Positions 21,285 to 58,045 of a stretch of 60,489 nt of DNA are shown piece after piece (positions within the stretch are counted from its first letter, which is position 1; every line of letters begins with the position of its first letter). Made by a program: the position numbers and the translations under genes. The DNA is from Candidatus Woesearchaeota archaeon. GTDB lineage: Archaea; Nanobdellota; Nanobdellia; Woesearchaeales; DATGWN01. A model generated the notes under the pieces. It ran no database searches. It was not told where the DNA came from and saw only the letters and a program-made list of their open reading frames with translations. The stretch lies in contig JBLKOU010000002.1 in assembly GCA_047603125.1 (NCBI GenBank), positions 1 to 60,489 of the forward strand, given 5' to 3'.

Positions 21285-21285
21285 A

Positions 21286-32652: not shown

Positions 32653-32713
32653 GTGGTTGTCGTCTTGGCAACACAAAAACTATTTAAATGGTAATTGTGC
32701 TTTTTAAAAGCAT

Positions 32714-36733: not shown

Positions 36734-36738
36734 ATCAC

Positions 36739-38358
36739 ATGGCTCTTATGACTGCGCGTGGACAAGTAACTGTTTTTTTAATCATCGGCCTAATTGTTTT
36801 TATGGCATTTGCTTTGTTATTGACATATCAACCGCGAACATCGGTAGAAGATTTATCTCCTGCGGATGCAACGCCTGCAAGAATTGCAGTTGAGACATAT
36901 CTGCGCCAGTGTTTACAGGAAAGTGCGGACACTGCCACGAAAACTATTTTGTCTCAAGGAGGGTTGTGGTTTGAAAGTCAGGGTGGTTCGGATAATGATG
37001 AAAATTTTGATTTTGACAAACCTGTTGTGCTTAGACATGATGTCTTGCCACGTCATAGTCCTCCATATTATCCTCATAATTTAAGTGGTCGATATAATGC
37101 GACGCTAGAAGAGCTTTATATTCATTTTCATGAACAAGGATTATTATTATTTCCATTATTTGGAAGAATTGACCCGAGGGCTGAGTCGGGGAATTTTTAT
37201 TTGCCCCGTCTTTGTGATCTTGAAGGGCCGAATTGGCCTGGCCATACTGATCATGGACGAACGTGTGAGTCAGATGTCTATGATACAATTGGTTCTGTTT
37301 CTTCAATACAAAATAAAATTCAATCATATACGACTGGAATCTTTCAAAACTGTATTGAGAGTTTGAGTGGGCGGGATGCGCCCGTTGCACAATCTATTGC
37401 ACAAGAGAGTTTTATTCATGTTATTTATTCAAACGATGGGGTTGAATATGTGGCAAAGGTTCCAACACAGGTAAATATTTCAGATGTTACGCTTCGATTA
37501 AATGATATTTCCTATACGCAACCTCTGCGAATTAAACCGATGTATAATCTCATTTTTTTTGGTATGCGTGAGGAGACTATTAATGCGAGTTTTATGATTG
37601 AGAATGCAAGCCATTGGGATTCATTGATATATTGTAATTATAATGGAACAAATTCTCTATGTTTATTGCCTGGTTTACAAATAACGCGGGAGAATAAGAC
37701 TTATGAGGACAGACATTATGACTTAATAACAGTTGTAGACACACAAGTTCCGCGCAGAGTGTTTTCTGTTTATTTTGAAAATCGTCCGCCAATAATTGAG
37801 TATCCGTCATATTCGCCATTTGTTGTGCAAGCGGACGAGACATTTAATATAACGCCTCGTATTATTGATCCGGACGGCGATACTGTTTGGACTGTTTTTT
37901 CTCGATATAATGGGTCTGAATGGATAAACGACACTTTATTTCGTTTTAATGAATCCCAATTGTATGAAGAAGGGGATTATTCTTTAGGTTGCCCTGGGAA
38001 TGTGTGTGCGAATTACACTGTTGATGTTTGTGAATTTGCGCAGCTGGGGACGCATAATTTTCGCTTATATGCTGCTGATCGTGGGGGGCCGTATGACTTT
38101 TTTCCGATTGATATTACGGTAAAGCCGGCCGATAACCTGGATAGTTGCTCAGGCTCTGTGTGGGATGCTTGCGCAACAGGTATGAACTCTACTTGTGTTG
38201 AGGTGTTGGAGGGGTATGGTGTTGATTTTAATCCTGCTGATGGAATATTTGAAGGTTGTGATTTAGAAGAGTGTTTAGGTAATTCATGTACTTTGTGGGG
38301 AGGTACAGATGTTCCGTTTCCGCAGCACGGCCAAGCGCTTTTTAACAAATTTTGTTAG
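36739..38358 (+). CDS. Protein with class III (prepilin-like) signal peptide and a Cys-rich C-terminus (539 aa)
   Basis: Starts 5 nt after the previous stop. The N-terminus MALMTARGQVTVFLIIGLIVFMAFALLL is a basic region, then G/Q, then a ~20-residue hydrophobic helix. Confidence 0.8.
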   Translation: MALMTARGQVTVFLIIGLIVFMAFALLLTYQPRTSVEDLSPADATPARIAVETYLRQCLQESADTATKTILSQGGLWFESQGGSDNDENFDFDKPVVLRHDVLPRHSPPYYPHNLSGRYNATLEELYIHFHEQGLLLFPLFGRIDPRAESGNFYLPRLCDLEGPNWPGHTDHGRTCESDVYDTIGSVSSIQNKIQSYTTGIFQNCIESLSGRDAPVAQSIAQESFIHVIYSNDGVEYVAKVPTQVNISDVTLRLNDISYTQPLRIKPMYNLIFFGMREETINASFMIENASHWDSLIYCNYNGTNSLCLLPGLQITRENKTYEDRHYDLITVVDTQVPRRVFSVYFENRPPIIEYPSYSPFVVQADETFNITPRIIDPDGDTVWTVFSRYNGSEWINDTLFRFNESQLYEEGDYSLGCPGNVCANYTVDVCEFAQLGTHNFRLYAADRGGPYDFFPIDITVKPADNLDSCSGSVWDACATGMNSTCVEVLEGYGVDFNPADGIFEGCDLEECLGNSCTLWGGTDVPFPQHGQALFNKFC

Positions 38359-38447
38359 CCGTAATAATTCCTTTGCTTTCCCGTCGGGGAAAATAGAAAA
38401 CTATTTAAAAGAAACTAGGCATTTTTAAACACTAAGAGGGGTCAGCA

Positions 38448-41400: not shown

Positions 41401-44400
41401 ATTCGGCAGATCCTCTTGCTTTACATGATCAGTATAGTAATTTTAAACCTGATTCAGCTTTTACTCGTCATAGTGCACAAGTAACATCTCCAGAAAATAC
41501 GCAAACAACATACTCGGTTATTTGTTCATTTTCTCAAGGAAACCGTGAAAAAATTGTGCAAAGCACTGTTCTTGTAGATACAATCCCGCCACAAACAGTT
41601 TTTATTAATGAGCAAACAGGAAAACCATTTGATTTTACGAAAGTTTATACAGAGCCAGTTACTGTACGGGTCGGTTGTGTTGATCAACCGCAAGGGGGCT
41701 TTGGTTGTGTTCATCGTTCGGGTTTGCAGGATTTAACTCTTGCAAGTTCACAAGATACTTCGCCCATTGATTTATCTAAAGCACAGGTGCGTGAAGAGGA
41801 TGAGTTTGCAGAGTTTACTGTGAATTCACTGGCAAAAATTTGTGCACAGACACGGGAAAAAACAAGAGAACCTGAATTTGGTGAGAATCAAGACTGCCAT
41901 GCAGTGCAATTTCAAGAATTACAACCCCATGTTCGTTTTGTAGATCCTCCCGAGTTTGCTTCTTCTAACTCTCCTCAAATAGTTGCACAAGTTTATTTCA
42001 TGCGTGATCCATTGTCTTTTTCTGTGAGTGGTGATCAAAATTATGTTAATAGTTCCTTTTTATTTAATACAGGAAAACTTTCTGGACGCTTTTCTTATAC
42101 GGATGAAGAAGATCGGGTAGAACTATATGTTGAATTTGGTGATCAAAGAGTCGTGTTTAATTTAGCTCAAAATAGGGTTGAATTTGCTGGCAGTACTGTA
42201 TCGTTTACATTTGAAGAAGGAGAGAATTATTTCTTTGACATTTACTCTCAAAGTTCCAATCAAGCAACGGTACGCTTAAATAATCAAACTCTTTTTAACA
42301 ACGTGCAAATTGGTTCGAGCGAAGGGATTGTGCGCTATGGGTATGAAAATACAATTCCTGGAATACAACCTCGCATAACAGTGAGCCCATTGTCTGTAGA
42401 AGTGTTTGATAGTTTGATCAGTGAGTATGACGTTACATTTACAGCTGGAGAGAGAATTACTCGAACAGTTCGACTTCCAGCAAATGAACCGAAGAATTTA
42501 CAAAATGTATTATCCTCATTTCGAATTGCAACACTTGATGAGTTTTATGAAGGAGGTCAAGTTCAATTACAAATATATCCTGTGGGCCATTCATCTAATG
42601 GGGATTCCCATACTGTAGAATTTCGTGTAGGGGATTCTATTAATCTTGACGTTTCTTTTGTTTCGGATGAAGGGACTAATACAATCTTTTTTGATGAGTC
42701 ATTTGGTGTAGAATATGAGTTTGAACACTTTTATCCTGTTGAAAATGTGACAATTGAATTACCCGATTCTTTTAAACACAGTACTGTTTTTGAACCACCT
42801 ACACGTTCAGCAAATGATTCGTTTACTGTTGCTATAAATCCTGATAATCGTATTCTTATTGGTGAACATATTGTTTATGCGTTTGTTGAAGATGCAGAGG
42901 GTCTTTTTTTAGAGCGAAATTTCACATTATCCATTTTGAGTCGATTCAGTGAATTTAATGATTTGTTGCGAATTTATACAAATACAAGTAGGCCAACTAT
43001 AGAATTTGGTGTTCCAAGTGAGTATAGTACAACGGAATGTCGTATAAGATATCCTTCGGAAGGTCAAACTCGAGAGCAAAAATTCGAGTCACAAGGAGAT
43101 ATAAGACGAGTCACACTTGAACATTCTTTGACAAAAAAACCAAATGCGGAAGTTGAAATTTCTGCAACAATTATGTGTTCTGCTGTCGCAGATAATGCTG
43201 CTCAAGAAATTGATGCAGTTATTATTGTTGATATGCGACCACCAAGGGTTGGTTTTGTCATTGACTCGTTTGATCAATCTATTGCTTATATGTCGGAGTA
43301 TTCCGTAGAATCAAAAACTTACAGGGTATTAAATTCATCTGGCGTGTTTGCAAAAGGTTTTCGGATAATGGCGGATGAACCTGTTCGATGTCGTTTTGAG
43401 CGAGGAGCATGGCAAAGCAATTGGACGGGATTACAAAAAAATCATCTTTTTACAGATGCGGCAGTACTGTTTTCTTCGCCATTGGTTCCTTCACAAATTC
43501 AGGCAACATGTCAAGATCAAGCAAATAATACGGTGACGCGCAGTCTGGATCTTACAGAATCGACAGAGCCAGTTCATCAAGTAACTGTTCCAGAAATTAT
43601 TTTTGCAAATCAACAATTTGAGGTCGAATTACAGACAACAAGAGATTATCAAGAATGTCGCGTTTCTCCAAACAGTGGTTGGTCGCATGCACTTCCTTTG
43701 ACATCCAATGATCGTGATTCGTTAACAGGACTTATAAGTCACACGAGGGATGTTCGTTTTAGTAATCAGCCAAGTACACTTTATATATTGTGCGATCAAC
43801 AAGTAGTTTATACAAAAACGGGATTATTGTATGAGCCTTTATCGGAAAATGAATTCCAGGCTGTACTGGTAACACAACCGTTTATTACACAGGATTCTCA
43901 AAAAACAATTGCCATTGAAGTGAATCAAACCCAACATCCATTCAAGGTTTATGTATATAATGATGGTTTGCAGTTAGTGAGAGAGTTTGAACCACAGACC
44001 GAATCAATTTTCCTTCCTGTTTCCTTGCATGGTGGAACAAATGAACTTCAAGTCTTGGTTGAATATGGACCCAAAACTATTGAACTTAAACGTTTATACG
44101 GATATAGGTCTGTTTCAGGTTCACGTGGTACGTATGCATATTTGCGAGGAGCGGTAGGAACAATTTCTCAATATCCTGGTTTATATTATGATGTGCAAAA
44201 TCAGAGTGTTGAGTTTGAGGATTTTGTTTCTGGCAATTACTACACATTGGTGGAAGAATATGAAGGAGAAACTGTCTATCATGCATTTCGCTATGAATCG
44301 TTGACACCATTTGTTTATTATAATAGCACTCGTTCTCAATTTATGTGGGATGGTCCATTTATGTATGATGTTCGCGATGGAAGAAATGAAGATGTAGTTA

Positions 44401-47400
44401 TGGGTCAACGGCCAATGAGTGCATTTGATTCTCAGGTGGGGCGCGATACAATTAGTCACGAGGGGAGTTTTTCAAGTAATGCTTATGTTTTTGCGACAGT
44501 TTTTAGTGAATTTTTAACAGAGGGACGAGGTTCATTTGCCCAATTTGTTGAATCCGTTTCAACACCAGTTACAATGGACGTACATCCTACGACAATTGTA
44601 ACTCCAAGACCGACATTGGAAGTTTATTGGAATCGACCTCTTCAGATTATTGAAGCAACCTTTAGTGGTGGAGCTGTTAATGAGCAGTTTTCAAGTATGA
44701 CGGACTTTTTATTGAATCAAAGCTTTCAAATAGAATCATCACTTGAAGAAGGCCAGCGCTATACACTAGATATACTTACCCAGACGCCAGGTGGTGCTCA
44801 GCAGGAATTTTCAAAAGACTTTACTGTTTCATTTGAACCATTGAAGATAACACTTGTCTCTCCCAAATTTACCGATCGGAGAAACTATGATTTTGTCATT
44901 CGAACAGATAGGAATGCGCAGTGTGGTTTTGCACAATCTGACACTGATTTTGAGAGTATGCAACTATTAGTATCGACAGACGACAATACTCATGTAGCAA
45001 CTGTGCAATTTGAATCTGACGAGTCAGAAAAGACATTATTTGTCAATTGTAAAGATCTCACAACAAATGTGATTTTAAATCAACCTGAGCAATTTGTTAT
45101 AACTTACAATGACGATAGTCCGACTTTTGATTTTGAAGTAGTGCAATCACAATTTATTCCTGAAACAAACGCGTTTGCAATCATAACGCCAACAGGAAAA
45201 GCGCTTGCAACAGTGAATGCAACACAACCTGTAACATGTACTTTTGCGCGAGAAGAAAGTACCCCAAGCACATTTGGTTCTGATCAATTTAACACATCGC
45301 ACGAACATATGATTTCCATTTCAAATACTGAGCCGCAAAATTATACTATTCGATGTGAAAATCCTGCAGGTAGGTATACTCAGCAAACATATCCATTTTA
45401 TAAAATTTCGCCTGCGCAATCTGCGCATATTTTTATTGAAGAGCCTTCTTCAACAAGACCATTTGTTTTTGAGCGAAGTACGTCTCTTGTAGTGCGAACA
45501 ACTCCTAATAAGTTTACTCAATGTTCATATCGTGCAAACCAGGGTTCAGAAATTTCTCTTGTGAGACAAGATGATGCGACATACTATATTCAAGAATCTT
45601 TGCAACTTCAGCTTGGATGGAATGTCCTAAATGTGACTTGCACAGGTGCAGATGCACATCAAGAATACTCGACACGTTCGGTTTTTGTTGATCAAATTCC
45701 TCCGACAATATCTGCTATTGATGTTGAGTCAAGCATTACTGTGAACCCTCATCAATTACGCGATCATCCATTCTATTTACGTGCAAATGTTTCGGGTCGG
45801 GATGAGCAATCGGGATTATCTGAGATACAATATATGATCAGAACAGATACAACTACTCAAATTGCAAGTGGGAATGTTTTACTCCAAGGAGTTTCACAAA
45901 TAGAGAATAGAACACTTTCAAAAAATATAAATATTGATCCTTTGATTAGTGAAGATAGCTTCTATTGGGATATTTCGTTGATAAATAGAGCTGGATTAGT
46001 TTCGCAACTTGAATCAACTCCCGTGCAGATACATGTTGACCCCGATGTCGTTTATGCACAATTGTCTTTAGTACATTCTGACACAAATGTTACCCGAGAT
46101 AGATATGTGCAAATTCAAGCATTATTTACAACAAACCCTGATAAGTTTATTCATGCAAAAATAATAAATCCGAACGGAGTAGAGCTATCTACTGAATTAC
46201 TCGAGCGTCAAAATACACGTCATGTCTTTATTGCAAATAAAAGCGAGGATGGATTATTGGTTGAAGGAGTTCACAGATTTGAACTACGCTATGAAGATGG
46301 TGATGGTGAACACTATATACAAGAATATTATTTTGAATATCAACTAGGCAATGTTGAAATATTTTTAGAAAGTCCAAAGTATGGTGGAACAACAGCACAA
46401 AACACTCAATATCGCTTTATAACGACTGATTTGGCGACATGTGAGTACGACTGGGGAACAGAAATAGGTTCGGGGTCACAAAGTATATCTTCAAATTATC
46501 AGTTAAATCATAATGTTCCAATTAGTTTCCGGCCACAAGACGATGGTCAAGTCTTTTCATTGACACTGGAATGTACAAATAAAAATGAACAACCGACAAA
46601 AGAAACATTTACAATTACTTATGATACACAAAAACCGCAAATGAATGTGACATTCTCTCCGTTGATTAATAATCGTTGGATATTTAACCAAAGAACTGTT
46701 TCACTTTCAGTTAATACTGATAAACATACTTTGTGTCGATATGGCCGAACAAGTGACTTTGAACAGATGAATCCACTTTCAAACAATCAATTTTCAAGAG
46801 AACATACGACGCAAATATCTTCTTTACCTGATGATTCTATATGGTGGGTTGTGTGTAAAGCCAGAACTGAATTATCAACAAGTCTTGAACAAAGAATCTC
46901 TGTAGATTTGAATCCAACACAGTCTTTGATGATTCATTCTCCTGAGAGATATATTCGCCCAGGTGAGCATACAATTAACGCAACAACACACATACCTGTT
47001 GAGCCACAAAGTTGTGTTGCGAGTATAACAAAGAATAATCAGACACAAATGGTTGACATTAGCGTGACTGAAACTATCATTGAAGGGTTGCATACATTTT
47101 CGGATGAAGGCTCATACAAAATAGAATTGGATTGCAGCGGTACTGGAACTGCGCCTGGTGAGGGGGCATCCGCAAGTCGCTCAATTATTGTAGATGATAC
47201 TGCGCCAGAATTCATAAACATTTCTACACCACAAACTGCAAGATTAGATAGCCAAGATCGTGTTCCTATCAACGCGAGTGTAGTATTTAAAGATAATTTA
47301 TCAGGAATTTTATATTATGAATATATCGTAGGTTCAGCACCATTCCCTCAAGCAGGGTATAATTCATATATGAATGGTACGAATAGTTCAAGTGCATATT

Positions 47401-48185
47401 TTCAGACATTAGTCTCTGATGTTAAAAGAGATGACCTTATTTATGTAACCGTGCGAGCGGTAAACAAGGTTGATTTAAAAAGTGAGTATCAATCTTCAAA
47501 TTCGATTAGAGTCGTTGGTGGTTCAACAACATCCAATGGTTCAGATCCAGACCCTGATCCGGATCCTGATCCGGACCCGAAACCGCCAATTGTGCCTCCA
47601 AAAAGTGAGAATGGTGATGATGAACCGGATCCTCTTCCAGATCCAGATCCGCTACCGCAAGATGATACGCCTGATCCCGTAGAATCATCTTCAGGTCTTG
47701 GTATGTGGTTTTATATAATACTCCTCCTCCTTTTGATTATTGCTGTTGTCGGAGGATACTTTGGCTATACGGCGTATGAAGATAAGTTACAAAAACAAAA
47801 ACGCCCAGTCTCACGGTCTGTCGGCATGCCACCACCACCGGGCTCTACGCAAAGTCAATTTGGTTCACCAACAATGCCTGCTGCGCCACCCCAACAGATG
47901 AGTGTGAAGCAAAAGCTCAAACAACGCTTGCAAAAACGCCTTTCAGCAACAACGGGAGCTCAGGCGCCTGCGTCAGTTCAAAAAGAATCGACGCCAAGTC
48001 AGCCTGCACAGCCGTCAGCACCAATGAGTGAGTTACAAAAAATTGCACAATCTGCGCCAAAACCAACACAACAAAAAGCAGACCTTGAAGGGCTTAAATC
48101 GATTACAAATGGTGAGTCTGAAAAACCCCAAGAAGAAGATTCGCTTGAAAAGCTCAAGAAACTTTCGGAGAAAAAAGATGAATAA
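38448..48185 (+). CDS. Giant membrane-anchored surface protein (3245 aa)
   Basis: GTG start with an upstream gagggg. Sec signal MRIFLTILFLFTILLVSPVYA, a (DP)17 linker, a Cys-rich region, and at least 10 repeats of ~100 aa each with a conserved Cys pair. A second DP-rich linker is followed by a single C-terminal TM (WFYIILLLLLIIAVVGGYFGY) and a P/Q/K-rich tail. Confidence 0.9.
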   Translation: MRIFLTILFLFTILLVSPVYADDVKFGCYVHNWDTFIETNSCSGTTTLLQDLDASEKYDELVSEYEADSDELSARFAANKYCTSTQREDFGDVAGDLAEFCSGAICDLGDGRTVPRLFGNCSDTKAFFEANPDSLPSDPDPDPDPDPDPDPDPDPDPDPDPDPDPDPDPDPTDPQVCQNVCNLQTHVCSSSVSGEFNNVGPGSVCCQPDYCVEKPDVDLESRTISGSVERPGNLEGRLYQVRALQTDGEFGASVSQTGSSYELENLLPGVYNITITNFDSDPTYRIVDVTEENKTGINFNLTTDNIPTVIVTDEEGGALGGTSVVVIGGSVSQITPSSGTVYLVGANLGSLELFIVKDGYIPLRQTHDFGEENPFTARLQTKDCLQDEPPAPTYQRTPGSTRLKFTAFTPCNLAASSFVLERCLGVNCDSFVEVNQTATPLLTDSSAQWNRTYNYRIKIVYEQDSSIAYSPSVQIYTGDTVCEGMYQNQPFCGEEVDGNVGYRCSNNQVVNYYDTDDFTCDEPGFCVERLNQEGKFYLTCQQDNVCLIQDFVQSPFELFTSKDTCLENSDYLCYFDRGASVAPVCQTCFSQMKCSDYLTRDACRDDACHVGNVQDSACQWQESITQVGMGTCVPAQDFAQNNPTAACLQCTGSSCDQKMCEGLGVCTYVGGESKPCVATSDFYCSAVQDRNICEDHESCLWNQNKCVKNFNGQPCEAELGHLSQHCDDTIPPVTTIHMDSQLGVFDLYIINFSVIDQGIGGYPNNPRDDYTEFVEKTKLCFIDCFNTDLSFNSVNWKKAVITTNQIYFELNDSLVNSLNTEGGESIVYYYSVDRVLNSEAHSRHDVNRFYFRIDRTAPQLEVLTEVVMDYTGSQQPSVLFDIKTTHDTRADEAKRTSCSVSFSDQTQSSKNTYLSRHTFFFPEQNDGVRDATITCVDEFGNTNTKTESVEIWSDSDIEWISPARVVSEQDHDLIIETATPAECKYSADPLALHDQYSNFKPDSAFTRHSAQVTSPENTQTTYSVICSFSQGNREKIVQSTVLVDTIPPQTVFINEQTGKPFDFTKVYTEPVTVRVGCVDQPQGGFGCVHRSGLQDLTLASSQDTSPIDLSKAQVREEDEFAEFTVNSLAKICAQTREKTREPEFGENQDCHAVQFQELQPHVRFVDPPEFASSNSPQIVAQVYFMRDPLSFSVSGDQNYVNSSFLFNTGKLSGRFSYTDEEDRVELYVEFGDQRVVFNLAQNRVEFAGSTVSFTFEEGENYFFDIYSQSSNQATVRLNNQTLFNNVQIGSSEGIVRYGYENTIPGIQPRITVSPLSVEVFDSLISEYDVTFTAGERITRTVRLPANEPKNLQNVLSSFRIATLDEFYEGGQVQLQIYPVGHSSNGDSHTVEFRVGDSINLDVSFVSDEGTNTIFFDESFGVEYEFEHFYPVENVTIELPDSFKHSTVFEPPTRSANDSFTVAINPDNRILIGEHIVYAFVEDAEGLFLERNFTLSILSRFSEFNDLLRIYTNTSRPTIEFGVPSEYSTTECRIRYPSEGQTREQKFESQGDIRRVTLEHSLTKKPNAEVEISATIMCSAVADNAAQEIDAVIIVDMRPPRVGFVIDSFDQSIAYMSEYSVESKTYRVLNSSGVFAKGFRIMADEPVRCRFERGAWQSNWTGLQKNHLFTDAAVLFSSPLVPSQIQATCQDQANNTVTRSLDLTESTEPVHQVTVPEIIFANQQFEVELQTTRDYQECRVSPNSGWSHALPLTSNDRDSLTGLISHTRDVRFSNQPSTLYILCDQQVVYTKTGLLYEPLSENEFQAVLVTQPFITQDSQKTIAIEVNQTQHPFKVYVYNDGLQLVREFEPQTESIFLPVSLHGGTNELQVLVEYGPKTIELKRLYGYRSVSGSRGTYAYLRGAVGTISQYPGLYYDVQNQSVEFEDFVSGNYYTLVEEYEGETVYHAFRYESLTPFVYYNSTRSQFMWDGPFMYDVRDGRNEDVVMGQRPMSAFDSQVGRDTISHEGSFSSNAYVFATVFSEFLTEGRGSFAQFVESVSTPVTMDVHPTTIVTPRPTLEVYWNRPLQIIEATFSGGAVNEQFSSMTDFLLNQSFQIESSLEEGQRYTLDILTQTPGGAQQEFSKDFTVSFEPLKITLVSPKFTDRRNYDFVIRTDRNAQCGFAQSDTDFESMQLLVSTDDNTHVATVQFESDESEKTLFVNCKDLTTNVILNQPEQFVITYNDDSPTFDFEVVQSQFIPETNAFAIITPTGKALATVNATQPVTCTFAREESTPSTFGSDQFNTSHEHMISISNTEPQNYTIRCENPAGRYTQQTYPFYKISPAQSAHIFIEEPSSTRPFVFERSTSLVVRTTPNKFTQCSYRANQGSEISLVRQDDATYYIQESLQLQLGWNVLNVTCTGADAHQEYSTRSVFVDQIPPTISAIDVESSITVNPHQLRDHPFYLRANVSGRDEQSGLSEIQYMIRTDTTTQIASGNVLLQGVSQIENRTLSKNINIDPLISEDSFYWDISLINRAGLVSQLESTPVQIHVDPDVVYAQLSLVHSDTNVTRDRYVQIQALFTTNPDKFIHAKIINPNGVELSTELLERQNTRHVFIANKSEDGLLVEGVHRFELRYEDGDGEHYIQEYYFEYQLGNVEIFLESPKYGGTTAQNTQYRFITTDLATCEYDWGTEIGSGSQSISSNYQLNHNVPISFRPQDDGQVFSLTLECTNKNEQPTKETFTITYDTQKPQMNVTFSPLINNRWIFNQRTVSLSVNTDKHTLCRYGRTSDFEQMNPLSNNQFSREHTTQISSLPDDSIWWVVCKARTELSTSLEQRISVDLNPTQSLMIHSPERYIRPGEHTINATTHIPVEPQSCVASITKNNQTQMVDISVTETIIEGLHTFSDEGSYKIELDCSGTGTAPGEGASASRSIIVDDTAPEFINISTPQTARLDSQDRVPINASVVFKDNLSGILYYEYIVGSAPFPQAGYNSYMNGTNSSSAYFQTLVSDVKRDDLIYVTVRAVNKVDLKSEYQSSNSIRVVGGSTTSNGSDPDPDPDPDPDPKPPIVPPKSENGDDEPDPLPDPDPLPQDDTPDPVESSSGLGMWFYIILLLLLIIAVVGGYFGYTAYEDKLQKQKRPVSRSVGMPPPPGSTQSQFGSPTMPAAPPQQMSVKQKLKQRLQKRLSATTGAQAPASVQKESTPSQPAQPSAPMSELQKIAQSAPKPTQQKADLEGLKSITNGESEKPQEEDSLEKLKKLSEKKDE
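38859..38960 (+). repeat. (GAC CCN)n tract encoding (Asp-Pro)17, containing a perfect 36-bp tandem duplication
   Basis: 38871-38906 is identical to 38907-38942 (gaccccgaccccgacccggaccctgatccagaccct). Confidence 0.9.
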
Positions 48186-48699
48186 AAAAGGGTTTGACGC
48201 AAATCAAATGTTTATTTATATTGTTGCTATTGTAGTTGTTGGAGGCGTGTTAATTTTTGGAGGCCGTGCAGTACTTTTATTTTTACAAAGCAGCGAGAAT
48301 ATTCAAACAACACAGTATTTACGAAATTTAGAATCGGCAGCCACTGGTGTTGCAAATGAACATGGTACTGTTCGATTTCATGACGTCAGACTAGTGGCTC
48401 GTGCAGATAAAATTTGTATAATTGATAAAACGAATAGTACTATGCAGGATGGTAATTGCGATCAAGATTACGGCGCAGAATTATGCTACCTCTGGGAATT
48501 AATTGTTGAAAAACGCCAAGAACCAGCCAATGTCTTTTTATTACAAGGATCGGCCATTGTTCAATCATATCACATTGATAATTTGTATCCTGAAAGTGAA
48601 AATAATATTGTGTGTGCGCAAAGTTCGGGACAGCGCTTTGAGATGACAAATCGTCGAGGGGCCGCATATATTAACGTGACGCTGCCTAGTTCATCATGA
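48178..48699 (+). CDS. Prepilin-like (class III signal peptide) protein 1
   Basis: The ATG at 48178 overlaps the giant gene stop by 8 nt. N-terminus MNKKGFDANQMFIYIVAIVVVGGVLIFGG. Confidence 0.7.
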   Translation: MNKKGFDANQMFIYIVAIVVVGGVLIFGGRAVLLFLQSSENIQTTQYLRNLESAATGVANEHGTVRFHDVRLVARADKICIIDKTNSTMQDGNCDQDYGAELCYLWELIVEKRQEPANVFLLQGSAIVQSYHIDNLYPESENNIVCAQSSGQRFEMTNRRGAAYINVTLPSSS

Positions 48700-49718
48700 A
48701 TAAACAGGGTTTTATTGCAATTTCATTTCATTGGTTATTTATCGCCTTAATTGGTGGTTTTTTACTGTTCTTTTTCTTTAACCTTGTCTCTACTGGTGTT
48801 GATGTTGCACAGAATCAACAAAGCATTCAATTAGTAACAAATTTGGAAACATTATTTAGTGCATTTGCACAAAACGAACATACGGATGGGCCGATTTCTA
48901 TAGGGGAGAGAACACAATTGACGCTGAGTTGTGATTTTATCGGTGAAGGTGTTGCATCCAACTTTCGTGCAAATCGCGGTATTGATTTATCACTGAATAA
49001 TCTGGTTATTTATTCACCTGTTGAGCTTGAAGGTCCTACGATTTATGCAAAAACCATTCCGGCAAATATGCCATTTTATGTTGGTTCAGTGTTGTTATTA
49101 GTTGATACGCGAACAAAGTTTTATTTTGAGGGTTTTTCTGAGGATGAGTTTGCGTATTTAGTAGATGCACTGCCGCGTGGTGCTTTGGTTGAAAATTGGA
49201 CTGATTCAATTAATGATCGAGGTATGAATACGATTGTTGTGGTGAGCAAAAATGGTTTTTCAGGTGACCTCCCTTCTCGAAGAGGATTGACGGTGCGAAA
49301 TATTACCTTGGTTCCTGGAAGTTCAATTGACCAGGAAGGAACAATTCGCTATGGGGATGCGGATTCCCATAAATATATTGGAGAAGCAATGCTTTTAGGT
49401 GCGCTGGTTTCGGATGAAAATACATTTTTATGTAATACATTCAAACTCATGCAAACTTTTTCTCGTGTGTCGCAAGTGATGTCGCTTCGAGCGGGTGAAG
49501 TTCAACTTGAGCAATATACAAGTTCAGAGGCATGTCGAACAACGCAAAGTCAAATTGGTTTAGCTATTAGTCGCGTACGCTCTGAAATGAGCCCACTGAC
49601 GGTTTCTAAATATAGGGATAATTATGCGACTATAATGGGTGAGCTTCAAAATGAATTTCCCAGCATTAGAGCATTGAACAGAGAACTTGTCGAACGATCA
49701 TGCCCGGTGGTGTACTAA
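48696..49718 (+). CDS. Prepilin-like (class III signal peptide) protein 2 (340 aa)
   Basis: ATGA overlap with the previous gene. N-terminus MNKQGFIAISFHWLFIALIGGFLLFFFF. Confidence 0.7.
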   Translation: MNKQGFIAISFHWLFIALIGGFLLFFFFNLVSTGVDVAQNQQSIQLVTNLETLFSAFAQNEHTDGPISIGERTQLTLSCDFIGEGVASNFRANRGIDLSLNNLVIYSPVELEGPTIYAKTIPANMPFYVGSVLLLVDTRTKFYFEGFSEDEFAYLVDALPRGALVENWTDSINDRGMNTIVVVSKNGFSGDLPSRRGLTVRNITLVPGSSIDQEGTIRYGDADSHKYIGEAMLLGALVSDENTFLCNTFKLMQTFSRVSQVMSLRAGEVQLEQYTSSEACRTTQSQIGLAISRVRSEMSPLTVSKYRDNYATIMGELQNEFPSIRALNRELVERSCPVVY

Positions 49719-50206
49719 TGAAAAAAGCACAAATTCGCATGTTTGAAAGTATTGCAGTGTTGATTTTATTCTTTTTTCTTGTTGCAATCGGGCTTGGCTT
49801 TTATGGGAATATTCAACAAGCGCAGATGGAGCAGTCCCGTGATCAATTATTGAATTTACGAACAATAAAAATTGCAAACATGGTTGCGGGTATGCCTGAG
49901 CTTTCTTGCACTCAAGAAGGTGTCAAGACAAGTGCGTGTGTTGATTTTATAAAAGCAGAGCAAATGGCAAGTACTCCTTTTCAAGCTACACTTTTAGATT
50001 ACATCGAGTTTGATAATGCGAAAATAGAATTGTATGAGTTTATAGAAGATGATTTTGAACCCGTTGTAACCATTTTAGACCGGGCACCTACAGAATTTCG
50101 AGCTGCGATACCTTCGCGCGTTCCTGTAACAATTTATCGACCGGTTCCTGGAAGCTCACATGGGACATATGACTTTGGATATTTGGAGGTGACAACATAC
50201 CGATGA
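49718..50206 (+). CDS. Prepilin-like (class III signal peptide) protein 3
   Basis: TAATG overlap. N-terminus MKKAQIRMFESIAVLILFFFLVAIGLGF. The ORF-track start at 49700 is an alternative. Confidence 0.7.
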   Translation: MKKAQIRMFESIAVLILFFFLVAIGLGFYGNIQQAQMEQSRDQLLNLRTIKIANMVAGMPELSCTQEGVKTSACVDFIKAEQMASTPFQATLLDYIEFDNAKIELYEFIEDDFEPVVTILDRAPTEFRAAIPSRVPVTIYRPVPGSSHGTYDFGYLEVTTYR

Positions 50207-50700
50207 AGGCACAATCAGAATTATTGGGTTTTGTTATTGTGGTTTTGCTTATGTCAGTTGGCATGCTTTTTGTTTTAGGGTTTTATGTGTTTAGTGAGCC
50301 GTCCCAAGATAGAGAAATTTTTTCAGACAGACAAATTTCAACGATGCTCAACGCCGCGATATTACAAACATCAACAACATGTTACTCACTACCTTTGCGC
50401 GATTTAGTAGTAGACAGCCAACGACCGACTCAGTCTATAAATTGTCCAAATTCAGACGGGGTTTCCACTCCTAGTCTAGAATATGCTAAAACAAAAATTG
50501 AACAATTACTTAATGCAACTTTGGATGTCTGGGATGTTGATTATGAATATAGAGCGTATAGGGTACAAGGGGACGAAGAGCAAGGAAATCCTATAGAACT
50601 GAACAGAGGCGCATGTCGAGGAAAAGAACAAGTACCAAATACATTACTTTTACCCATACCTCCTTCTGGAACTGTGTATTCTGTATTGACAGTGTGTTAA
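50203..50700 (+). CDS. Prepilin-like (class III signal peptide) protein 4
   Basis: ATGA overlap. N-terminus MKAQSELLGFVIVVLLMSVGMLFVLGF. Confidence 0.7.
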   Translation: MKAQSELLGFVIVVLLMSVGMLFVLGFYVFSEPSQDREIFSDRQISTMLNAAILQTSTTCYSLPLRDLVVDSQRPTQSINCPNSDGVSTPSLEYAKTKIEQLLNATLDVWDVDYEYRAYRVQGDEEQGNPIELNRGACRGKEQVPNTLLLPIPPSGTVYSVLTVC

Positions 50701-52122: not shown

Positions 52123-52227
52123 GACGGGAATAAGTAAAAAATGAAAAAGGGAATTATTTATGTAATGATAACTGGCGTCTCTGGACTAAAAAAATGATTA
52201 AAATATATCATATTGAGAGTAATTAAG

Positions 52228-54489: not shown

Positions 54490-55176
54490 TTACGCATGTT
54501 CGTGATGTTCTTTTAATTTATCACTGAGTTTTTGAATATTAATATTTGCAAATAATGTTTGTAATTTTGGATTGTTTTCAATGATGCGCGCGAACCCTTG
54601 TACATTTGCAACAAGAAGTTTTTCCATATCAGGATTGCTATCAAAATATGCTGCAATTTTTCTTTTTTGCTCATCGCTAATGGATGGGCTTGGCGTTTGT
54701 GGTTTTGGAGGTACTACTTGAGACTGTTCTGGTTGTTTGTGTGTTTGAGTCGGTGTACTTTGTAGGTGCTGGCGAACAATGTCTGTTGCAATGCGCTCCA
54801 CCTGTTTTTGTGTGACAAATTGCACAGGATTCCAAATTTCAATATATTTTTCAAGTGTTTTGACTTCATTTTGTTTTGCTGTTTGTTGCAATTCTTGAAT
54901 GATTTTGGTCATGTCTGATTTGATAGATTTAATTTGGCGCGCAAGTTCATCTTTTTCTTCAAAGAAGAGTTCTAAATCCTTTTTGATTTTTTTGAGATCT
55001 TCAAGCGTGTTTTGTTCGTGCAAATCCATTTTTCGACGCATATTACTTTGCACTTCTTCAACCATACGTAGCCTTCGCGAAACACTTGCCATTTGTTGAG
55101 CCATCGCAGGTGCATTTTGAGGCGGAGGCGGATTTTTTTGTCCTCCAAATGAGAGATTGAGTGAATTATTTGCCAT
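54490..55176 (-). CDS. Coiled-coil protein with Pro/Gln-rich segments
   Basis: 228-aa ORF with an N-terminal QKNPPPPQNAPAMAQQ, a long coiled coil, a second P/Q-rich linker and a small C-terminal helical domain. Confidence 0.6.
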   Translation of the reverse strand: MANNSLNLSFGGQKNPPPPQNAPAMAQQMASVSRRLRMVEEVQSNMRRKMDLHEQNTLEDLKKIKKDLELFFEEKDELARQIKSIKSDMTKIIQELQQTAKQNEVKTLEKYIEIWNPVQFVTQKQVERIATDIVRQHLQSTPTQTHKQPEQSQVVPPKPQTPSPSISDEQKRKIAAYFDSNPDMEKLLVANVQGFARIIENNPKLQTLFANINIQKLSDKLKEHHEHA

Positions 55177-55786: not shown

Positions 55787-58045
55787 ATGGTACAATATGA
55801 AATCATTCGTGAAGGAGAAGAGATACTTTTACGAGTCGATTTTTCTCAAACATATACTATTCCAACCGTTGAGGACGATCCTCGAACGATGGAGCTTGTT
55901 GTCAAATTCTTACAAGAAGTTAAGCACGCAACAAAAATTATTATCAATCAACAACGAGATTATGAGTATGATTATGAACAAACGCATATGCTCTTAGAAG
56001 TTGCGCAATTACAAATTCGTCTCGTTGATTTTCCCATTAATCCGCTCGTTTCTACAAATCGTCTTATTAGTCAACATTATGTTCAATTGCAACAAATAAT
56101 TCATCAAAAAGTTCGCTCTGATCCCATCGGTGCATATGTGTCATTGATTCGCCTTATCCGTCATACACATATGAAAAAGCCCCATGGTGTGGGTCAAGTA
56201 AAAGATGCATATGCGTATTTTTGTACAATCTTAGAGCAGATAAAACAAGAGTTTGAGAAAATACAATTAATTAAAATTAGCCAAGATCAAATAGAAACCT
56301 ATGACGAGTCCCATCGTGATATTTATCGCCAATTTTTCACACCTACTATTAAGCCTGATTTTATGTTAACAAAAATTATGGCAAGCTACCCAAAAAACGC
56401 AAAGGAAGTTGATTCCTTTATGATTGGCAAAACCCAAGTTACCATTTTTGAGCTTGCAGACAATGTTCAATACATGTATCATATTATGCCGCCAGAGTTT
56501 CAGCTCAGTGATGAACTCTACTCATTATTAGAAGATGCGCGCGCAGTCTTGTCAGAGCACAAACCACAAAAAGAAGAGTTTACTGATCCAGAGCGAATGC
56601 GAGAGGTGTTTTTTAATGTTGGGTTTGATTTAATACAAGAAATTGCAAATGAAAAACAAGTGCAACTTAGCAAAACTGAGCGAACAATGCTGACGAATAT
56701 TCTCATTCGTTACACAGTTGGTTTTGGTTTAATTGAAATTTTACTTGAAGATGAGCAGATGCAAGATATTTCCATAAATAGTCCACAAGGTGCAAATCCC
56801 ATTTACATTGTTCATGGAAAGTATGATGAGTGTATTACTAACATTATGCCAACAAAAGGCGAGGCTGAAAGCTGGGCGACAAAATTGCGATTGATTTCTG
56901 GTCGAAGTTTAGATGAGGCAGATCCTATTTTAGATACGGAGCTGGAATTTCCAAATGCGAGTGTTCGTGTTTCAGCAATTACGTATCCACTCAACCCTTC
57001 AGGTTTGGCGTTTTCCTTTCGTCGACATCGCGATAAACCATGGACGCTGCCATTATTTATGAAGTACAAGATGATTAATGCTCAAGCTGCTGGTCTATTG
57101 AGTTTTTTCATTGATGGTTCGCGAACAATGTTAATTGCGGGAACAAGAAGTAGCGGGAAATCGTCATTTTTATCAGCTATTATGATAGAAATTATGCGTC
57201 GGTATAGAATGATTACAATCGAAGATACATTGGAGCTGCCAACAAAACAAATGCGTGAATTAGGTTTTAATATTCAACCGATGAAAGTTGCATCTGCTCT
57301 GGGTGCAAAAACAAGTGAAATGGATGCAAGTGATGGTATTCGCTCAACACTACGATTAGGTGACTCGGCACTTATCGTTGGGGAGGTGCGAAGTACTGAA
57401 GCAAAGGCATTGTATGAAGCCATGCGTGTTGGCGCGGCTGCAAATGTAGTTGCAGGAACAATTCATGGTGATAGCCCGTATGGTATTTTTGATCGTGTGG
57501 TCAATGATATTGGCGTTCCAAAAACATCGTTTAAAGCAACGGATATTATTATTATCGCAAACCCTATTCGCTCAGCAGATGGGTTGCATAAATATAGGCG
57601 CGTGCTCTCGATAACAGAAGTGCGCAAAGATTGGGATGATGATCCGCTCAAAGAACATGGGTTTGTTGAATTGATGCGATATAATCCTCTGACAGATCAA
57701 TTAGAGCCAACGGATGCACTCATCGGAGGCGATTCTGATTCTCTCAAAGATATTGCAGGTCGTGTTCGCGAGTTTGCAGGAAACTGGGATGCCATTTGGC
57801 AAAATGTACAACTTCGCGGTCAATTAAAAGAGTTATTGGTGCAAGCAAGTACAGATGCAAATATTCCTGAATTATTAGAAGCGCCTTTTGTTATTTCTTG
57901 TAATGATGAATATCATCGTTTATATGAGAAGGTTCGACAAAACAAACGCTTTGAGAATGAGGAGCAAATAAATCAAGCAATCTTAGAACAATTTGAGCAA
58001 TGGTTACAAAGGCAGGTTCGTGCATGGCAGAAATCGATAAATTAA
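55787..58045 (+). CDS. Type II/IV secretion-family ATPase (archaeal FlaI/PilB-like) with a long N-terminal extension
   Basis: Walker A AGTRSSGKSS, Asp box ITIEDTLEL, Walker B ALIVGEVR and His box AGTIHGD, in 752 aa. Confidence 0.92.
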   Translation: MVQYEIIREGEEILLRVDFSQTYTIPTVEDDPRTMELVVKFLQEVKHATKIIINQQRDYEYDYEQTHMLLEVAQLQIRLVDFPINPLVSTNRLISQHYVQLQQIIHQKVRSDPIGAYVSLIRLIRHTHMKKPHGVGQVKDAYAYFCTILEQIKQEFEKIQLIKISQDQIETYDESHRDIYRQFFTPTIKPDFMLTKIMASYPKNAKEVDSFMIGKTQVTIFELADNVQYMYHIMPPEFQLSDELYSLLEDARAVLSEHKPQKEEFTDPERMREVFFNVGFDLIQEIANEKQVQLSKTERTMLTNILIRYTVGFGLIEILLEDEQMQDISINSPQGANPIYIVHGKYDECITNIMPTKGEAESWATKLRLISGRSLDEADPILDTELEFPNASVRVSAITYPLNPSGLAFSFRRHRDKPWTLPLFMKYKMINAQAAGLLSFFIDGSRTMLIAGTRSSGKSSFLSAIMIEIMRRYRMITIEDTLELPTKQMRELGFNIQPMKVASALGAKTSEMDASDGIRSTLRLGDSALIVGEVRSTEAKALYEAMRVGAAANVVAGTIHGDSPYGIFDRVVNDIGVPKTSFKATDIIIIANPIRSADGLHKYRRVLSITEVRKDWDDDPLKEHGFVELMRYNPLTDQLEPTDALIGGDSDSLKDIAGRVREFAGNWDAIWQNVQLRGQLKELLVQASTDANIPELLEAPFVISCNDEYHRLYEKVRQNKRFENEEQINQAILEQFEQWLQRQVRAWQKSIN

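Follow-up and report, generated by a model that had tools for sequence, protein, structure and literature searches.

Genes and features of the locus

The stretch of DNA analysed here (the window, 60,489 nt) belongs to a lake-water DPANN archaeon of the Woesearchaeota type, and the runs containing this sequence are DNA only. Genes at 32714-50700 form a single seven-gene surface operon encoding a cysteine-rich, Sec-secreted protein of 1339 aa, a pilin-like protein of 539 aa, a giant surface protein of 3245 aa and four smaller pilin-like proteins, here called P1 to P4 (Table 1). The TATA-box-like element in front of the operon is a possible archaeal promoter, from which a transcript with little or no leader would arise.

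The product of gene 1, for which a Pfam search returned no family, is a candidate secreted adhesin or accessory protein. Partial homologues of 250-550 aa were encoded directly upstream of the 539-aa-like gene, two genes before the giant one, in seven long related loci. In the giant protein a Sec signal peptide is combined with (DP)n repeats close to either end, a transmembrane helix at the C-terminus and a charged ~180-aa tail; this layout suggests a protein of the S-layer-like or adhesin type. Its Pfam matches were weak and comprised CarboxypepD_reg and PARP-repeat only.

The start codons of P1 to P4 had been described as overlapping the preceding stop codons, and on re-reading of the sequence all four overlaps were found where they had been placed. 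Shine-Dalgarno-like motifs precede the starts of P1 (GGAG), P3 (GGTGGTG) and P4 (GGAGGTGA), and the chosen starts are backed by the N-termini of homologues. The overlapping codons are the one feature from which a fixed stoichiometry with the giant protein, as proposed in the original prediction, may be read.

Table 1. Position of the surface operon and of neighbouring genes in the window (/ marks the predicted cleavage site)
Feature	Position	Strand	Basis or remarks
TATA-box-like element ctatttaaat	32681..32690	+	Read from sequence; ~25 nt upstream of the operon's first ATG
Gene 1, 1339-aa Cys-rich protein	32714..36733	+	ORF, translation; Sec-type signal peptide (MGTIRVWVIVLLFFLTSSVVFAGG)
Gene 2, 539-aa pilin-like protein	36739..38358	+	ORF, translation
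Gene 3, giant 3245-aa surface protein	38448..48185	+	ORF; stop TAA at 48183-48185
P1, 173-aa pilin-like protein, MNKKG/FDANQMFIYIVAIVVVGG	48178..48699	+	ATG at 48178; 8-nt overlap with giant-gene stop
P2, 340-aa pilin-like protein, MNKQG/FIAISFHWLFIALIGG, largest of P1-P4	48696..49718	+	ATG in ATGA 48696-48699
P3, 162-aa pilin-like protein, MKKA/QIRMFESIAVLILFFF	49718..50206	+	ATG in TAATG 49716-49720
P4, 165-aa pilin-like protein, MKA/QSELLGFVIVVLLMSVG	50203..50700	+	ATG in ATGA 50203-50206
189-aa coiled-coil protein, convergent with P4	51356..51925	-	Non-specific coiled-coil Pfam matches only
228-aa coiled-coil protein, divergent from ATPase gene, directly upstream	54490..55176	-	Conserved neighbourhood
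T2SSE ATPase (FlaI/TadA/GspE2-like), 752 aa	55787..58045	+	Pfam T2SSE E=2e-15
TadC/FlaJ-like polytopic platform, 740 aa, ~9 TM	58000..60222	+	Pfam T2SSF E=6.5e-5, just below cut-off

Pilin-like families and their cleavage site

P1 to P4 and the 539-aa protein are type IV pilin-like proteins. The N-terminal designs claimed for them were present at the expected places: MNKKG/FDANQ.. in P1, MNKQG/FIAIS.. in P2, MKKA/QIRMFES.. in P3, MKA/QSELLGF.. in P4 and ..TARG/QVTVFLIIG in the 539-aa protein, where a predicted class III site (R-G/Q-V-T-V-F-L-I-I-G) is followed by a hydrophobic helix. We scanned both strands of the window, using all ATG, GTG and TTG starts and ORFs of at least 40-80 aa, for K/R followed by a small residue (G/A, and in a second scan also S) and a strongly hydrophobic 18-mer, with the small residue directly after K/R or, in the first scan, one residue later. 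Only these five ORFs showed the design convincingly. The other matches (a polytopic protein, a 567-aa protein, a 218-aa protein with six TM at 24005 and an ORF overlapping another gene) were spurious.

Each of P1 to P4 represents one conserved family. Together the four families, which include full-length homologues, count 1,899 relatives at E<=1e-3, 322 of them at E<=1e-10. Nearly all relatives are unnamed "hypothetical proteins" of Woesearchaeota/Nanoarchaeota. Two homologues carry the automatic names 'ComGC' and 'UPF0333', assigned independently, the closest P4 homologue being named 'competence protein ComGC' by JGI. No pilin family in Pfam or NCBIfam was matched above threshold, PF04021 (Class_IIIsignal) was absent among the 25 most often matched of 85 families in a scan of 90 family members, and sequence and profile searches of the PDB found nothing. 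For the 539-aa protein, Pfam and NCBIfam searches likewise returned no family. The gene preceding the giant gene began with [KR..][GAS]Q[ILV]T[LVI][FMY][IL]I.G in 14 of 15 non-redundant related loci, and the 539-aa protein belongs to a fifth conserved pilin-like family.

Across hundreds of homologues of P1 to P4 a [KR][GAS]/Q site was conserved despite a leader varying from 3 to about 50 residues, with K/R at -2 in 91-98% and G/A/S at -1 in 99-100% of sequences. Glutamine at +1 was without exception in the P3 and P4 families, together with an invariant acidic residue. Thus, among 69 non-redundant P3 sequences, -2 was K/R in 91%, -1 A/G/S in 99%, and +1 Q and +6 E in 100%; in 59 P4 sequences the figures were 98% for K/R at -2 and 100% each for G/S/A at -1, Q at +1, E at +3 and G at +6. 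All 46 sequences of the P2 family had G/A at -1 and 98% had K/R at -2, and W13, F15, G20, C79, C246 and C336 were invariant and C280 nearly so in 39 aligned sequences. Among the closest relatives of P1, K3, G5, D7 and Q10 were invariant, and its wider family shares the motif K[AS]Q.IGQ.FI[FY]; P1 is also distantly related to P2 across the first ~85 residues (hhalign probability 91%). Six cysteines are conserved in the outer domain of P4. The window's own P2 has Q, not K/R, at -2, both P1 and P2 have F, not Q, at +1, and in P1 the polar FDANQ precedes the hydrophobic segment. The acidic residue stands at +2, +3 or +6, and in EppA substrates and bacterial pilins typically at +5.

Read from its residues, the site of these families appears to be that of an archaeal class III signal peptide, of the type with Gln at +1 that EppA cleaves in Methanococcus. 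The conserved site with its variable leader supports this reading, since the published rules ask for G/A/S at -1, in archaea also for a charged -2 position, and in EppA substrates for Gln at +1 (PMC4371748).

Predicted structures

An N-terminal helix followed by a beta-rich domain, as would be looked for in a pilin, was present in the AlphaFold models of P2 and P3. The P3 model (pLDDT 93.1) has a predicted helix at residues 2-57 and then six beta strands, and the P2 model (pLDDT 92.4) a helix at 11-59, a beta-rich domain at 64-228 and a C-terminal three-helix bundle at 241-333. In both models the N-terminal helix of 50-56 residues is predicted to run about 30 residues beyond its hydrophobic part, as does alpha-1 of pilins. 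A Foldseek search of the PDB with both models gave nothing at E<=1e-3, and no solved pilin resembles the globular domains.

Gene order in relatives

The seven-gene surface module occurs in the same order in many relatives. The order P1-P2-P3-P4 on one strand was found in essentially all of 73 metagenomic loci and in one locus from a genome (L004), usually with a pilin-like gene of ~370-550 aa and a giant gene of 1,400-2,800 aa upstream; in nearly all long loci the giant-like gene, encoding a hydrophobic C-terminal segment, stands before P1. The motif and tight packing recurred in about 60 non-redundant related loci, with a median of 10-19 nt from the upstream stop to the +1 codon, and the tight coupling is kept. 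In related loci the cluster runs on with 8-12 more genes of like N-terminal design, and separate genes encode Cys-rich proteins of 85-130 aa with a class III-like leader design; within the window none of these small candidate major pilins was found.

This gene order bears on the kind of subunit that P1 to P4 might be. The original prediction spoke of minor and major pilin-like subunits. Its pilin-like part is supported, but not the designation as major subunits: proteins of 162-340 aa in a fixed four-gene order with equimolar-type coupling have the look of minor pilins. We favour minor pilins because the genes are coupled, their order is fixed and their products far exceed the small candidate major pilins of relatives in size. 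It seems to us quite improbable that P1 to P4 themselves build the shaft, which would make them the major pilins of a heteropolymeric filament and not a tip or initiation complex present in few copies. Several pilins do build pili in some archaea (PMC4371748), the P3 family exceeds the other three in abundance and conservation, and the window holds no smaller pilin candidate. However, four families with such order and coupling are typical of a minor pilin set, the separate 85-130-aa genes of relatives fit major pilins better, and P2 with its helical bundle would be bulky as a shaft subunit.

Assembly machinery and prepilin peptidase

A pair of genes for an ATPase and a membrane platform, absent from the original prediction, lies 5 kb downstream of P4. 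The ATPase matched NCBIfam models of FlaI (3.9e-36) and TadA (7e-34), both far below the equivalog cut-offs, and its nearest solved structures were Archaeoglobus fulgidus GspE2 (2OAP), CpaF and FlaI. It is a candidate motor for the pilin-like proteins. The platform gene overlaps the end of the ATPase gene and adjoins it in 31 of 37 related loci. Two coiled-coil proteins, which are not paralogues of each other, share this neighbourhood. In 24 of 37 Woesearchaeal loci the 189-aa protein is encoded close to the ATPase, and in L004, as in the window, it adjoins P4; it is a candidate accessory of the ATPase and platform on the cytoplasmic side. The 228-aa protein, near the ATPase in 27 of the 37 loci, is likewise a candidate accessory. 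The pair lies less than 10 kb from the surface module in the window and L004 only, and is usually unlinked to it elsewhere.

In a Pfam scan that covered all ORFs from 110 aa upwards, and with them each polytopic membrane ORF, no A24 peptidase was recognised in the window, in agreement with the earlier observation. Neither in the 60-kb window nor in the flanks of 37 related ATPase loci or of the module elsewhere did we find a peptidase of the A24/EppA/PibD type. Alternatively, the proteins might remain as uncleaved signal anchors. P1 to P4 and the 539-aa protein would then form a membrane complex for holding, ordering or maturing the giant S-layer-like protein, and no filament would be made. 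FlaF and FlaG of the archaellum offer an analogue, as they look pilin-like but are stator or S-layer-binding parts. The missing peptidase, the mostly unlinked ATPase and platform genes, the giant protein's own membrane anchor and globular folds unlike any known pilin all speak for this explanation, and a long helix would be modelled for any N-terminal membrane helix. Nevertheless, we regard it as unlikely. It leaves unexplained why, beside a basic residue and behind a leader of free length, -1 is small in 99-100% of sequences and +1 is Gln in 100%; the invariant Glu/Asp just inside the hydrophobic helix is a typical trait of pilins and not of anchors; the helix extends about 30 residues past its hydrophobic part like pilin alpha-1; and the window does encode an ATPase and platform pair. 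The class III signal peptides originally proposed, on a set of pilin-like subunits, are supported by the conserved site, the AlphaFold models, the machinery genes and the fifth conserved family to which the 539-aa protein belongs.

The ATPase also had a weak NCBIfam match to the bindosome ATPase BasE (3.1e-14, far below cut-off). The five pilin-like proteins might form a short, non-protruding stub, like type II secretion pseudopili or the Sulfolobus bindosome, that pushes or positions the giant and 1339-aa proteins in or through the envelope. Their genes are co-operonic with those of two large exported proteins, and P1 to P4 resemble a minor-pseudopilin set of four with one large member (P2), as GspK is among GspH-K. 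We would give this only a slim chance: both large proteins bear ordinary Sec signal peptides, a single-membrane cell requires no second export step, and Pfam, NCBIfam and Foldseek showed no homology to type II secretion pseudopilins or bindosome parts.

Comparison with known systems

Among characterized filaments we compared the pilin-like proteins with the Epd pilus of Methanococcus maripaludis (EpdA-E, processed by EppA), which shares K/R at -2, G/A at -1 and Gln at +1; its sites RAQI, KGQV, KGQL and KGQI compare with RGQV, KAQI and KAQS in the window (PMC4371748). Several minor pilins per operon together with large adhesin-like proteins are a further likeness (PMC4371748; PMC4858521). Epd-like (System 1) type IV filaments have been reported in DPANN archaea (bioRxiv 10.64898/2026.04.22.720090). 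The window differs from the Epd system in several ways. Its pilin-like proteins showed no similarity in sequence to annotated pilin families, the acidic residue occupies +3 or +6 instead of +5, and Phe stands at +1 of P1 and P2. An EppA gene is absent from the locus and its vicinity, one 740-aa platform gene takes the place of two, and the DUF2341 domain known from clade 1 loci is missing from the large proteins.

In some known archaeal loci, genes for an adhesin and for several Cys-rich minor pilins accompany one for an S-layer-like protein that has a C-terminal TM (PMC4858521). The part list of the Thermoproteales clade 4G loci of Makarova et al. 2016 is the same as here: a large S-layer-like protein with a C-terminal TM, a large signal-peptide protein that is an adhesin or minor pilin, and several small predicted minor pilins, which are rich in Cys and evolve fast (PMC4858521). 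However, they belong to another phylum and have no detectable homology, and the Woesearchaeal module is usually apart from the ATPase and platform genes.

In P4 and in 6 of 90 family members, the N-terminal ~30 residues match the start of the archaeal Pfam profile DUF7289 (best E=6.7e-5), with scores below the gathering cut-off; the literature searched made no mention of this profile. For the window's P4 the match reaches 14 bits against a cut-off of 27 and spans residues 3-32 only, i.e. leader and hydrophobic helix, the 238-position family body being unmatched. FlaF and FlaG are similar in having a pilin-like N-terminal hydrophobic helix, a beta-rich outer domain and an S-layer partner, but they share no sequence similarity with the proteins described here, which make up four or five families and not two. 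They have been called minor archaellins (PMC4858521). Archaellum genes (FlaH, archaellins) were not found in the window.

Possible role of the pilin-like proteins

We think it rather probable that P1 to P4 serve as minor pilins in a type IV filament of the Epd-like kind, with the giant adhesin carried by this filament or acting as its partner. Each pilin-like protein would be inserted via Sec with its N-terminus in the cytoplasm, and an A24 prepilin peptidase encoded elsewhere in the genome would cut the basic leader of 3-8 residues after G/A at -1. Given the prevalence of Gln at +1 in these families, an enzyme of the EppA kind is expected. A FlaI/TadA-type ATPase and TadC-like platform would then pull the freed hydrophobic helices from the membrane and bundle them.

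Bacterial minor (pseudo)pilins are thought to prime assembly and to occupy the tip. The four (or five) subunits would most likely form such an initiation or tip complex, with a role comparable to that of GspH-K, or of FimU-PilVWX with PilY1. Through this complex the giant adhesin and the 1339-aa protein would be joined to the filament, allowing attachment to surfaces or to host cells. The likeness lies in four side-by-side pilin-like genes, one much larger, near a gene for a very large non-pilin adhesin; unlike the bacterial sets, P1 to P4 have an archaeal-type leader with charged -2 and Gln +1, and no sequence or fold match connects them. Unlike PilY1, the giant protein is membrane-anchored by itself and therefore has no need of pilins to stay on the cell. 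GspH-I-J-K and FimU-PilV-W-X/PilY1 serve as a working analogy only (see also PMC4858521).

P1 to P4 are unannotated, new members of an already known kind of protein, the type IV pilin-like proteins, and may be pilins that surveys of such archaeal genomes have missed.

Pilin-like genes around the giant gene

For the four small genes directly behind the giant gene (P1, P2, P3 and P4), the start and stop codon overlaps and the N-termini described in the original prediction were exact, as was the N-terminus of the 539-aa protein encoded just before it. Shine-Dalgarno-like sequences lie upstream of the starts of P1 (GGAG), P3 (GGTGGTG) and P4 (GGAGGTGA). We screened every start codon on both strands, for ORFs of at least 40-80 aa, for a basic residue, a small residue directly or one residue later, and a strongly hydrophobic 18-mer. 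The only convincing matches to this leader design in the window were P1-P4 and the 539-aa gene; the prepilin-like pattern is not a product of chance.

Downstream of P4, a terminator and promoter scan of bacterial type, which is ill-suited to archaea, found none. A TATA-like element preceded by an A-run was located about 25 nt 5' of the ATG of the first gene of the module, which encodes a Sec-secreted, Cys-rich 1339-aa protein. Such an arrangement would suit an archaeal promoter and an operon transcript with almost no leader. The giant protein carries long (Asp-Pro)n repeats near both ends (residues ~140-175 and ~3030-3075), which explain a spurious Pfam match to trypanosome procyclin (PARP). 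The mature part of its homologues opens with a G-C-C-x-[ND]-P motif that is weak in the window copy.

Coordinates of features in the window and in related loci (a slash marks the predicted cleavage point)
Feature	Position	Strand	Description
PolD large subunit DP2	1356-5129	-	intein (Intein_splicing domain, residues 850-1004)
Envelope gene cluster	19581-28605		no Pfam family
6-TM protein	23897-24553		218 aa
AAA_14/DUF4143 ATPase	28695-29927	-	between envelope cluster and RFC gene
TATA-like element	32681-32690		ctatttaaat
1339-aa protein gene	32714-36733	+	first gene of module
539-aa ORF	36739-38358	+	N-terminus ..MTARG/QVTVFLIIG..
Giant ORF	38448-48185	+	3245 aa, TAA stop 48183-48185
P1	ATG 48178	+	173 aa, 8-nt overlap with giant ORF, N-terminus MNKKG/FDANQMFIYIV..
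P2	start 48696	+	340 aa, start within ATGA, N-terminus MNKQG/FIAISFHWLF..
P3	start 49718	+	162 aa, start within TAATG, N-terminus MKKA/QIRMFESIAVL..
P4	50203-50700	+	165 aa, start within ATGA, N-terminus MKA/QSELLGFVIVV..
Coiled-coil protein	51356-51925	-	189 aa
RhuM-family gene	52213-53145	+	Pfam 4.5e-100
Deoxyhypusine synthase	53490-54485	+	
Coiled-coil protein	54490-55176	-	228 aa
T2SSE ATPase	55787-58045	+	752 aa; Pfam 2e-15; NCBIfam FlaI 3.9e-36, TadA 7e-34
TadC/FlaJ-like platform	58000-60222	+	740 aa, ~9 TM, overlaps ATPase gene
Extended module, locus L113	11048-17473		
Extended module, locus L111	11419-19287		
Extended module, locus L059	15171-20341		
Extended module, locus L100	14993-20467		
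5-TM trio, locus L019	7082-8868		
5-TM trio, locus L018	6941-8721		
5-TM trio, locus L033	3880-5670		
5-TM trio, locus L027	6623-8543		
5-TM trio, locus L005	5838-7665		

Conservation of the predicted cleavage site

Processing of prepilins requires G, A or S at position -1 and, in archaea, depends critically on a charged -2 (PMC4371748). Both the window proteins and their families showed a short basic leader, G/A/S at -1, a charged -2 and a site before the hydrophobic domain. In the window proteins the best 18-residue stretch of that domain scored 2.3-3.0 for hydrophobicity. The window sites are K-G/F in P1, K-A/Q in P3 and P4 and R-G/Q in the 539-aa protein; P2 departs from the -2 rule here (Q-G/F, with K at -3). 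Among non-redundant sequences out of related loci, K or R occupied -2 in 91-98% and G/A/S occupied -1 in 99-100% of the P2, P3 and P4 families. In the P3 family (69 sequences) K/R at -2 reached 91% and A/G/S at -1 99%, and Gln at +1 and Glu at +6 were present in 100%. The P4 family (59 sequences) had K/R at -2 in 98%, and G/S/A at -1, Gln at +1, Glu at +3 and Gly at +6 in 100%. In the P2 family (46 sequences) K/R at -2 was found in 98% and G/A at -1 in 100%, with a mixed +1 position (F, V, Q, I). The wider P1 family shares the motif K[AS]Q.IGQ.FI[FY], and the subgroup of the window copy has KKGFDANQ.FIYI. Genes before the giant gene in other loci encode [KR..][GAS]Q[ILV]T[LVI][FMY][IL]I.G in 14/15 cases.

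Leaders ranged from 3 to ~50 residues within each family, and the alignments nevertheless fall into register at one site. A rival explanation is that these are uncleaved signal-anchor proteins that organise the giant protein, like FlaF/FlaG; the invariance of the -1 and +1 residues beside leaders of such variable length argues against it.

In substrates of the peptidase EppA the Gln at +1 is highly conserved; EppA needs it and FlaK rejects it, and the Epd pilins of Methanococcus maripaludis have the sites RAQI, KGQV, KGQV, KGQL and KGQI (PMC4371748). The window counterparts are RGQV (539-aa protein), KAQI (P3) and KAQS (P4), so that these proteins match the Gln+1 class III type specifically. 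Gln at +1 was found in P3, P4, the 539-aa protein and 14/15 of its counterparts. The window copies of P1 and P2 have Phe instead, and many of their family members have Gln. Another EppA-type feature, Glu at +5, was not found in P3 or P4, where the invariant Glu is at +6 and +3, respectively. In P1 an Asp occupies +2, and in the P2 family Glu is mostly found at +2/+3.

Four protein families with pilin-like predicted architecture

A word-index homology search with P2 as query returned only P2 itself. An exhaustive HMMER search, for which P1-P4 were joined end to end in one job, yielded 1,899 relatives at E<=1e-3 and 322 at E<=1e-10. Since each relative was similar in size to one of the four segments and matched it from end to end, P1-P4 were found to represent four separate families. 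P1 and P2 are related over their first ~85 residues (hhalign probability 91%), and P3 and P4 over the N-terminal helix only. The outer domains have conserved cysteines (two in P3, four in P2, six in P4), in keeping with export of the proteins.

With the P3 family as profile query, 301 proteins were found, none with a precomputed Pfam domain; all named ones were "hypothetical protein" of Woesearchaeota or Nanoarchaeota. One JGI record among the P3 relatives bears the name "UPF0333 family", and the nearest homologue of P4 is named "competence protein ComGC" by JGI, after a bacterial type IV pilin. Nothing exceeded threshold in Pfam and NCBIfam scans of P1-P4, and no pilin family was among the matches listed in Pfam scans of 90 family members. 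The sole recurrent weak Pfam match was DUF7289, in 6/90 members and confined to the first ~30 residues (14 bits for the window P4 against a gathering cut-off of 27). PF04021 (Class_IIIsignal, UPF0333) was absent among the 25 families listed of the 85 that these 90 members matched at E<=1. Sequence and profile searches of the PDB with queries from the P families gave no matches.

AlphaFold2 models of P3 and P2, built with family alignments, contained the N-terminal alpha-helix and beta-rich globular domain that the original prediction had proposed to look for. The P3 model (mean pLDDT 93.1) has one helix (residues 2-57), after which come six strands and two short helices. In the P2 model (mean pLDDT 92.4) a helix (11-59) leads into a beta-rich domain (64-228), and the C-terminal part forms a three-helix bundle (241-333). 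In both, the N-terminal helix extends ~30 residues beyond the hydrophobic segment, like alpha-1 of pilins. A likeness of the globular domains to a solved pilin or archaellin fold was not borne out, as Foldseek against the PDB found no match at E<=1e-3 for either model, the best hits being unrelated proteins (E 0.37 for P3, 0.19 for P2). The predicted architecture of P2 and P3 is thus pilin-like, with modelled head domains unlike those of any solved pilin. Because pilin head domains are very diverse, the missing fold match lowers the case for homology to known pilins and not that for a pilin-like architecture.

Seven genes conserved as a module

Scanning metagenomes with the P3 alignment (12-sequence subset) retrieved 73 loci. 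Family HMMs recovered the order P1-P2-P3-P4 on one strand in essentially every sufficiently long locus, and likewise in the genome locus L004. In the related loci P1 is preceded by a giant gene (1,400-2,800 aa) whose product is hydrophobic in its C-terminal segment; before this comes a pilin-like gene of ~370-550 aa, and farther upstream a partial homologue of the 1339-aa protein. The +1 codon follows the upstream stop codon at a median of 10-19 nt, and since leaders have 3-7 residues, most loci have starts that adjoin or overlap the stop before them. A literature search found no description of this module.

Some related loci, such as L113, L111, L059 and L100, extend the module by 8-12 genes, nearly all encoding a basic leader, a [GAS] residue and a hydrophobic helix. 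These include six-Cys proteins of 85-130 aa with the motif KK[SG]QG[LI][SP]I[NT][AT]IIVA.., e.g. MNKKSQGLSINAIIVAVIALIVL, which by their sequences look like better candidates for a major pilin. Pfam assigned these small candidates to no pilin family, and the scan for the leader design found none of this size in the window. That P1-P4 themselves are major shaft subunits is disfavoured both by these smaller candidates and by the presence of four families in an equimolar layout.

Putative assembly machinery and search for a prepilin peptidase

Overlooked in the original prediction were the genes for an assembly ATPase and a polytopic platform protein located 5 kb 3' of P4. The nearest solved structures to the ATPase are A. 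fulgidus GspE2 (2OAP), CpaF and FlaI. Both components are thus encoded in the window, and their pairing with the pilin operon is putative; only in the window and L004 are they 10 kb or less away from the module. Relatives of the ATPase were found almost only in metagenome-assembled genomes of Candidatus Woesearchaeota, Nanoarchaeia and Nanoarchaeota.

The initial observation that no A24 prepilin peptidase is recognisable in the window held in Pfam searches of all ORFs of at least 110 aa and in a GxGD motif scan of all 60 kb. We extended the search to GxGD/GxHyD motif and TM-count scans of the window and all fetched loci, and to Pfam scans of 19 candidate polytopic ORFs of related loci and the polytopic ORFs of the window. 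The polytopic membrane ORFs selected from the flanks of related loci included no A24 peptidase: candidates were UbiA, permeases, carotenoid synthase and similar proteins, or had no family. The 218-aa 6-TM protein was rejected as a hidden peptidase, having neither a family match nor a GxHyD motif. The failure to find a peptidase in the window and among the ORFs selected from the flanks, the weak link between module and ATPase and the giant protein's own anchor would all suit uncleaved signal anchors, against which the invariant site residues weigh.

Two mutually unrelated coiled-coil proteins are encoded near the T2SSE ATPase in 24/37 (189 aa) and 27/37 (228 aa) Woesearchaeal loci and may serve the filament machine as accessory proteins in the cytoplasm. 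In the window as in L004, the gene for the 189-aa protein and P4 are convergent. The two coiled-coil genes adjoin in most related ATPase loci; in the window they are separated by a RhuM-family and a deoxyhypusine synthase gene, which suggests a local insertion or rearrangement. Just 5' of the coiled-coil genes and the ATPase, most relatives have three tandem paralogous genes for ~190-aa membrane proteins with 5 TM, two of the three bearing an N-terminal motif such as L-x-x-x-G-[ILV]-[FL]-D-[VAS]-[VL]-L-P. No copy occurs in the window, and the candidate members scanned had no Pfam family.

The window is archaeal (~36% G+C) and encodes the PolD large subunit with an intein, the PolD small subunit, Cdc6/Orc1, RFC, an eRF1-domain protein and deoxyhypusine synthase. 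When evidence of expression was sought, the sequence was found only in DNA runs of lake-water metagenomes. The envelope gene cluster encodes a 567-aa N-anchored Cys-rich, a 786-aa polytopic and the 218-aa 6-TM protein, and three lipobox proteins (306, 303 and 318 aa); a comparison of the first two showed them to be paralogues (28% identity, E=1e-23). Having no homologues in the related loci, it was rejected as part of the module.

Proposed function and significance

P1-P4 and the 539-aa protein are probably class III pilin-like proteins, and a type IV filament is the best supported model for them. Sec would insert all five into the membrane, and an A24 peptidase encoded elsewhere, probably EppA-like given the Gln at +1, would trim the leader after G/A at -1. 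The ATPase and platform would then assemble the subunits through their N-terminal helices. The invariable order and tight coupling of the subunits, together with their sizes and diversity, suggest a complex of minor pilins that initiates the filament or sits at its tip; its partners would be the giant adhesin and the secreted 1339-aa protein. The cleavage and assembly steps and the contact with the giant protein are our inference. As a whole, the explanation as minor pilins of a type IV filament acting with a giant adhesin seems somewhat better than even; a tip or initiation role specifically is proposed only tentatively. A pseudopilus or bindosome-like stub that positions the large proteins is a possible alternative, to which homology lends no support.

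The proposed mechanism fits archaeal loci that join an S-layer-like protein with a C-terminal TM segment, an adhesin and several Cys-rich minor pilins (Makarova et al., PMC4858521). It also fits the reported occurrence of the Epd-like System 1 in DPANN archaea (bioRxiv 10.64898/2026.04.22.720090). EppA-type systems have an EppA peptidase of their own in the locus and a clade 1 ATPase with two platform genes; the locus here has no EppA peptidase and a single 740-aa platform gene.

Type IV pilin-like proteins of archaea, and operons that join minor pilins with an adhesin, were already known. New are five unannotated conserved families with what is, judged from their alignments, a clear Gln+1 class III site. 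Also new is a Woesearchaeal module that is widely conserved in many Woesearchaeota and Nanoarchaeota, with a fixed order tied to a giant surface protein. Pili are the presumed means by which DPANN archaea attach to their hosts. Surveys of these archaea reported assembly ATPases, platform proteins and sometimes peptidases, yet no annotated pilins (PMC9563170, PMC4858521), and the five families plausibly supply the pilins reported missing. A further-reaching and rather unlikely reading sees in the module an attachment organelle, specific to DPANN archaea and derived from type IV filaments. In it the five subunits, as the missing DPANN pilins overlooked by current databases, would form a short stalk or tip that carries or positions the giant adhesin, so that these ultra-small archaea could dock onto host cells. 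The view of how type IV filaments work is unchanged by our finding. The P1-P4 and 539-aa families are candidates for the adhesive tip of a DPANN pilus, and all five provide concrete profiles with which DPANN genomes can be annotated.
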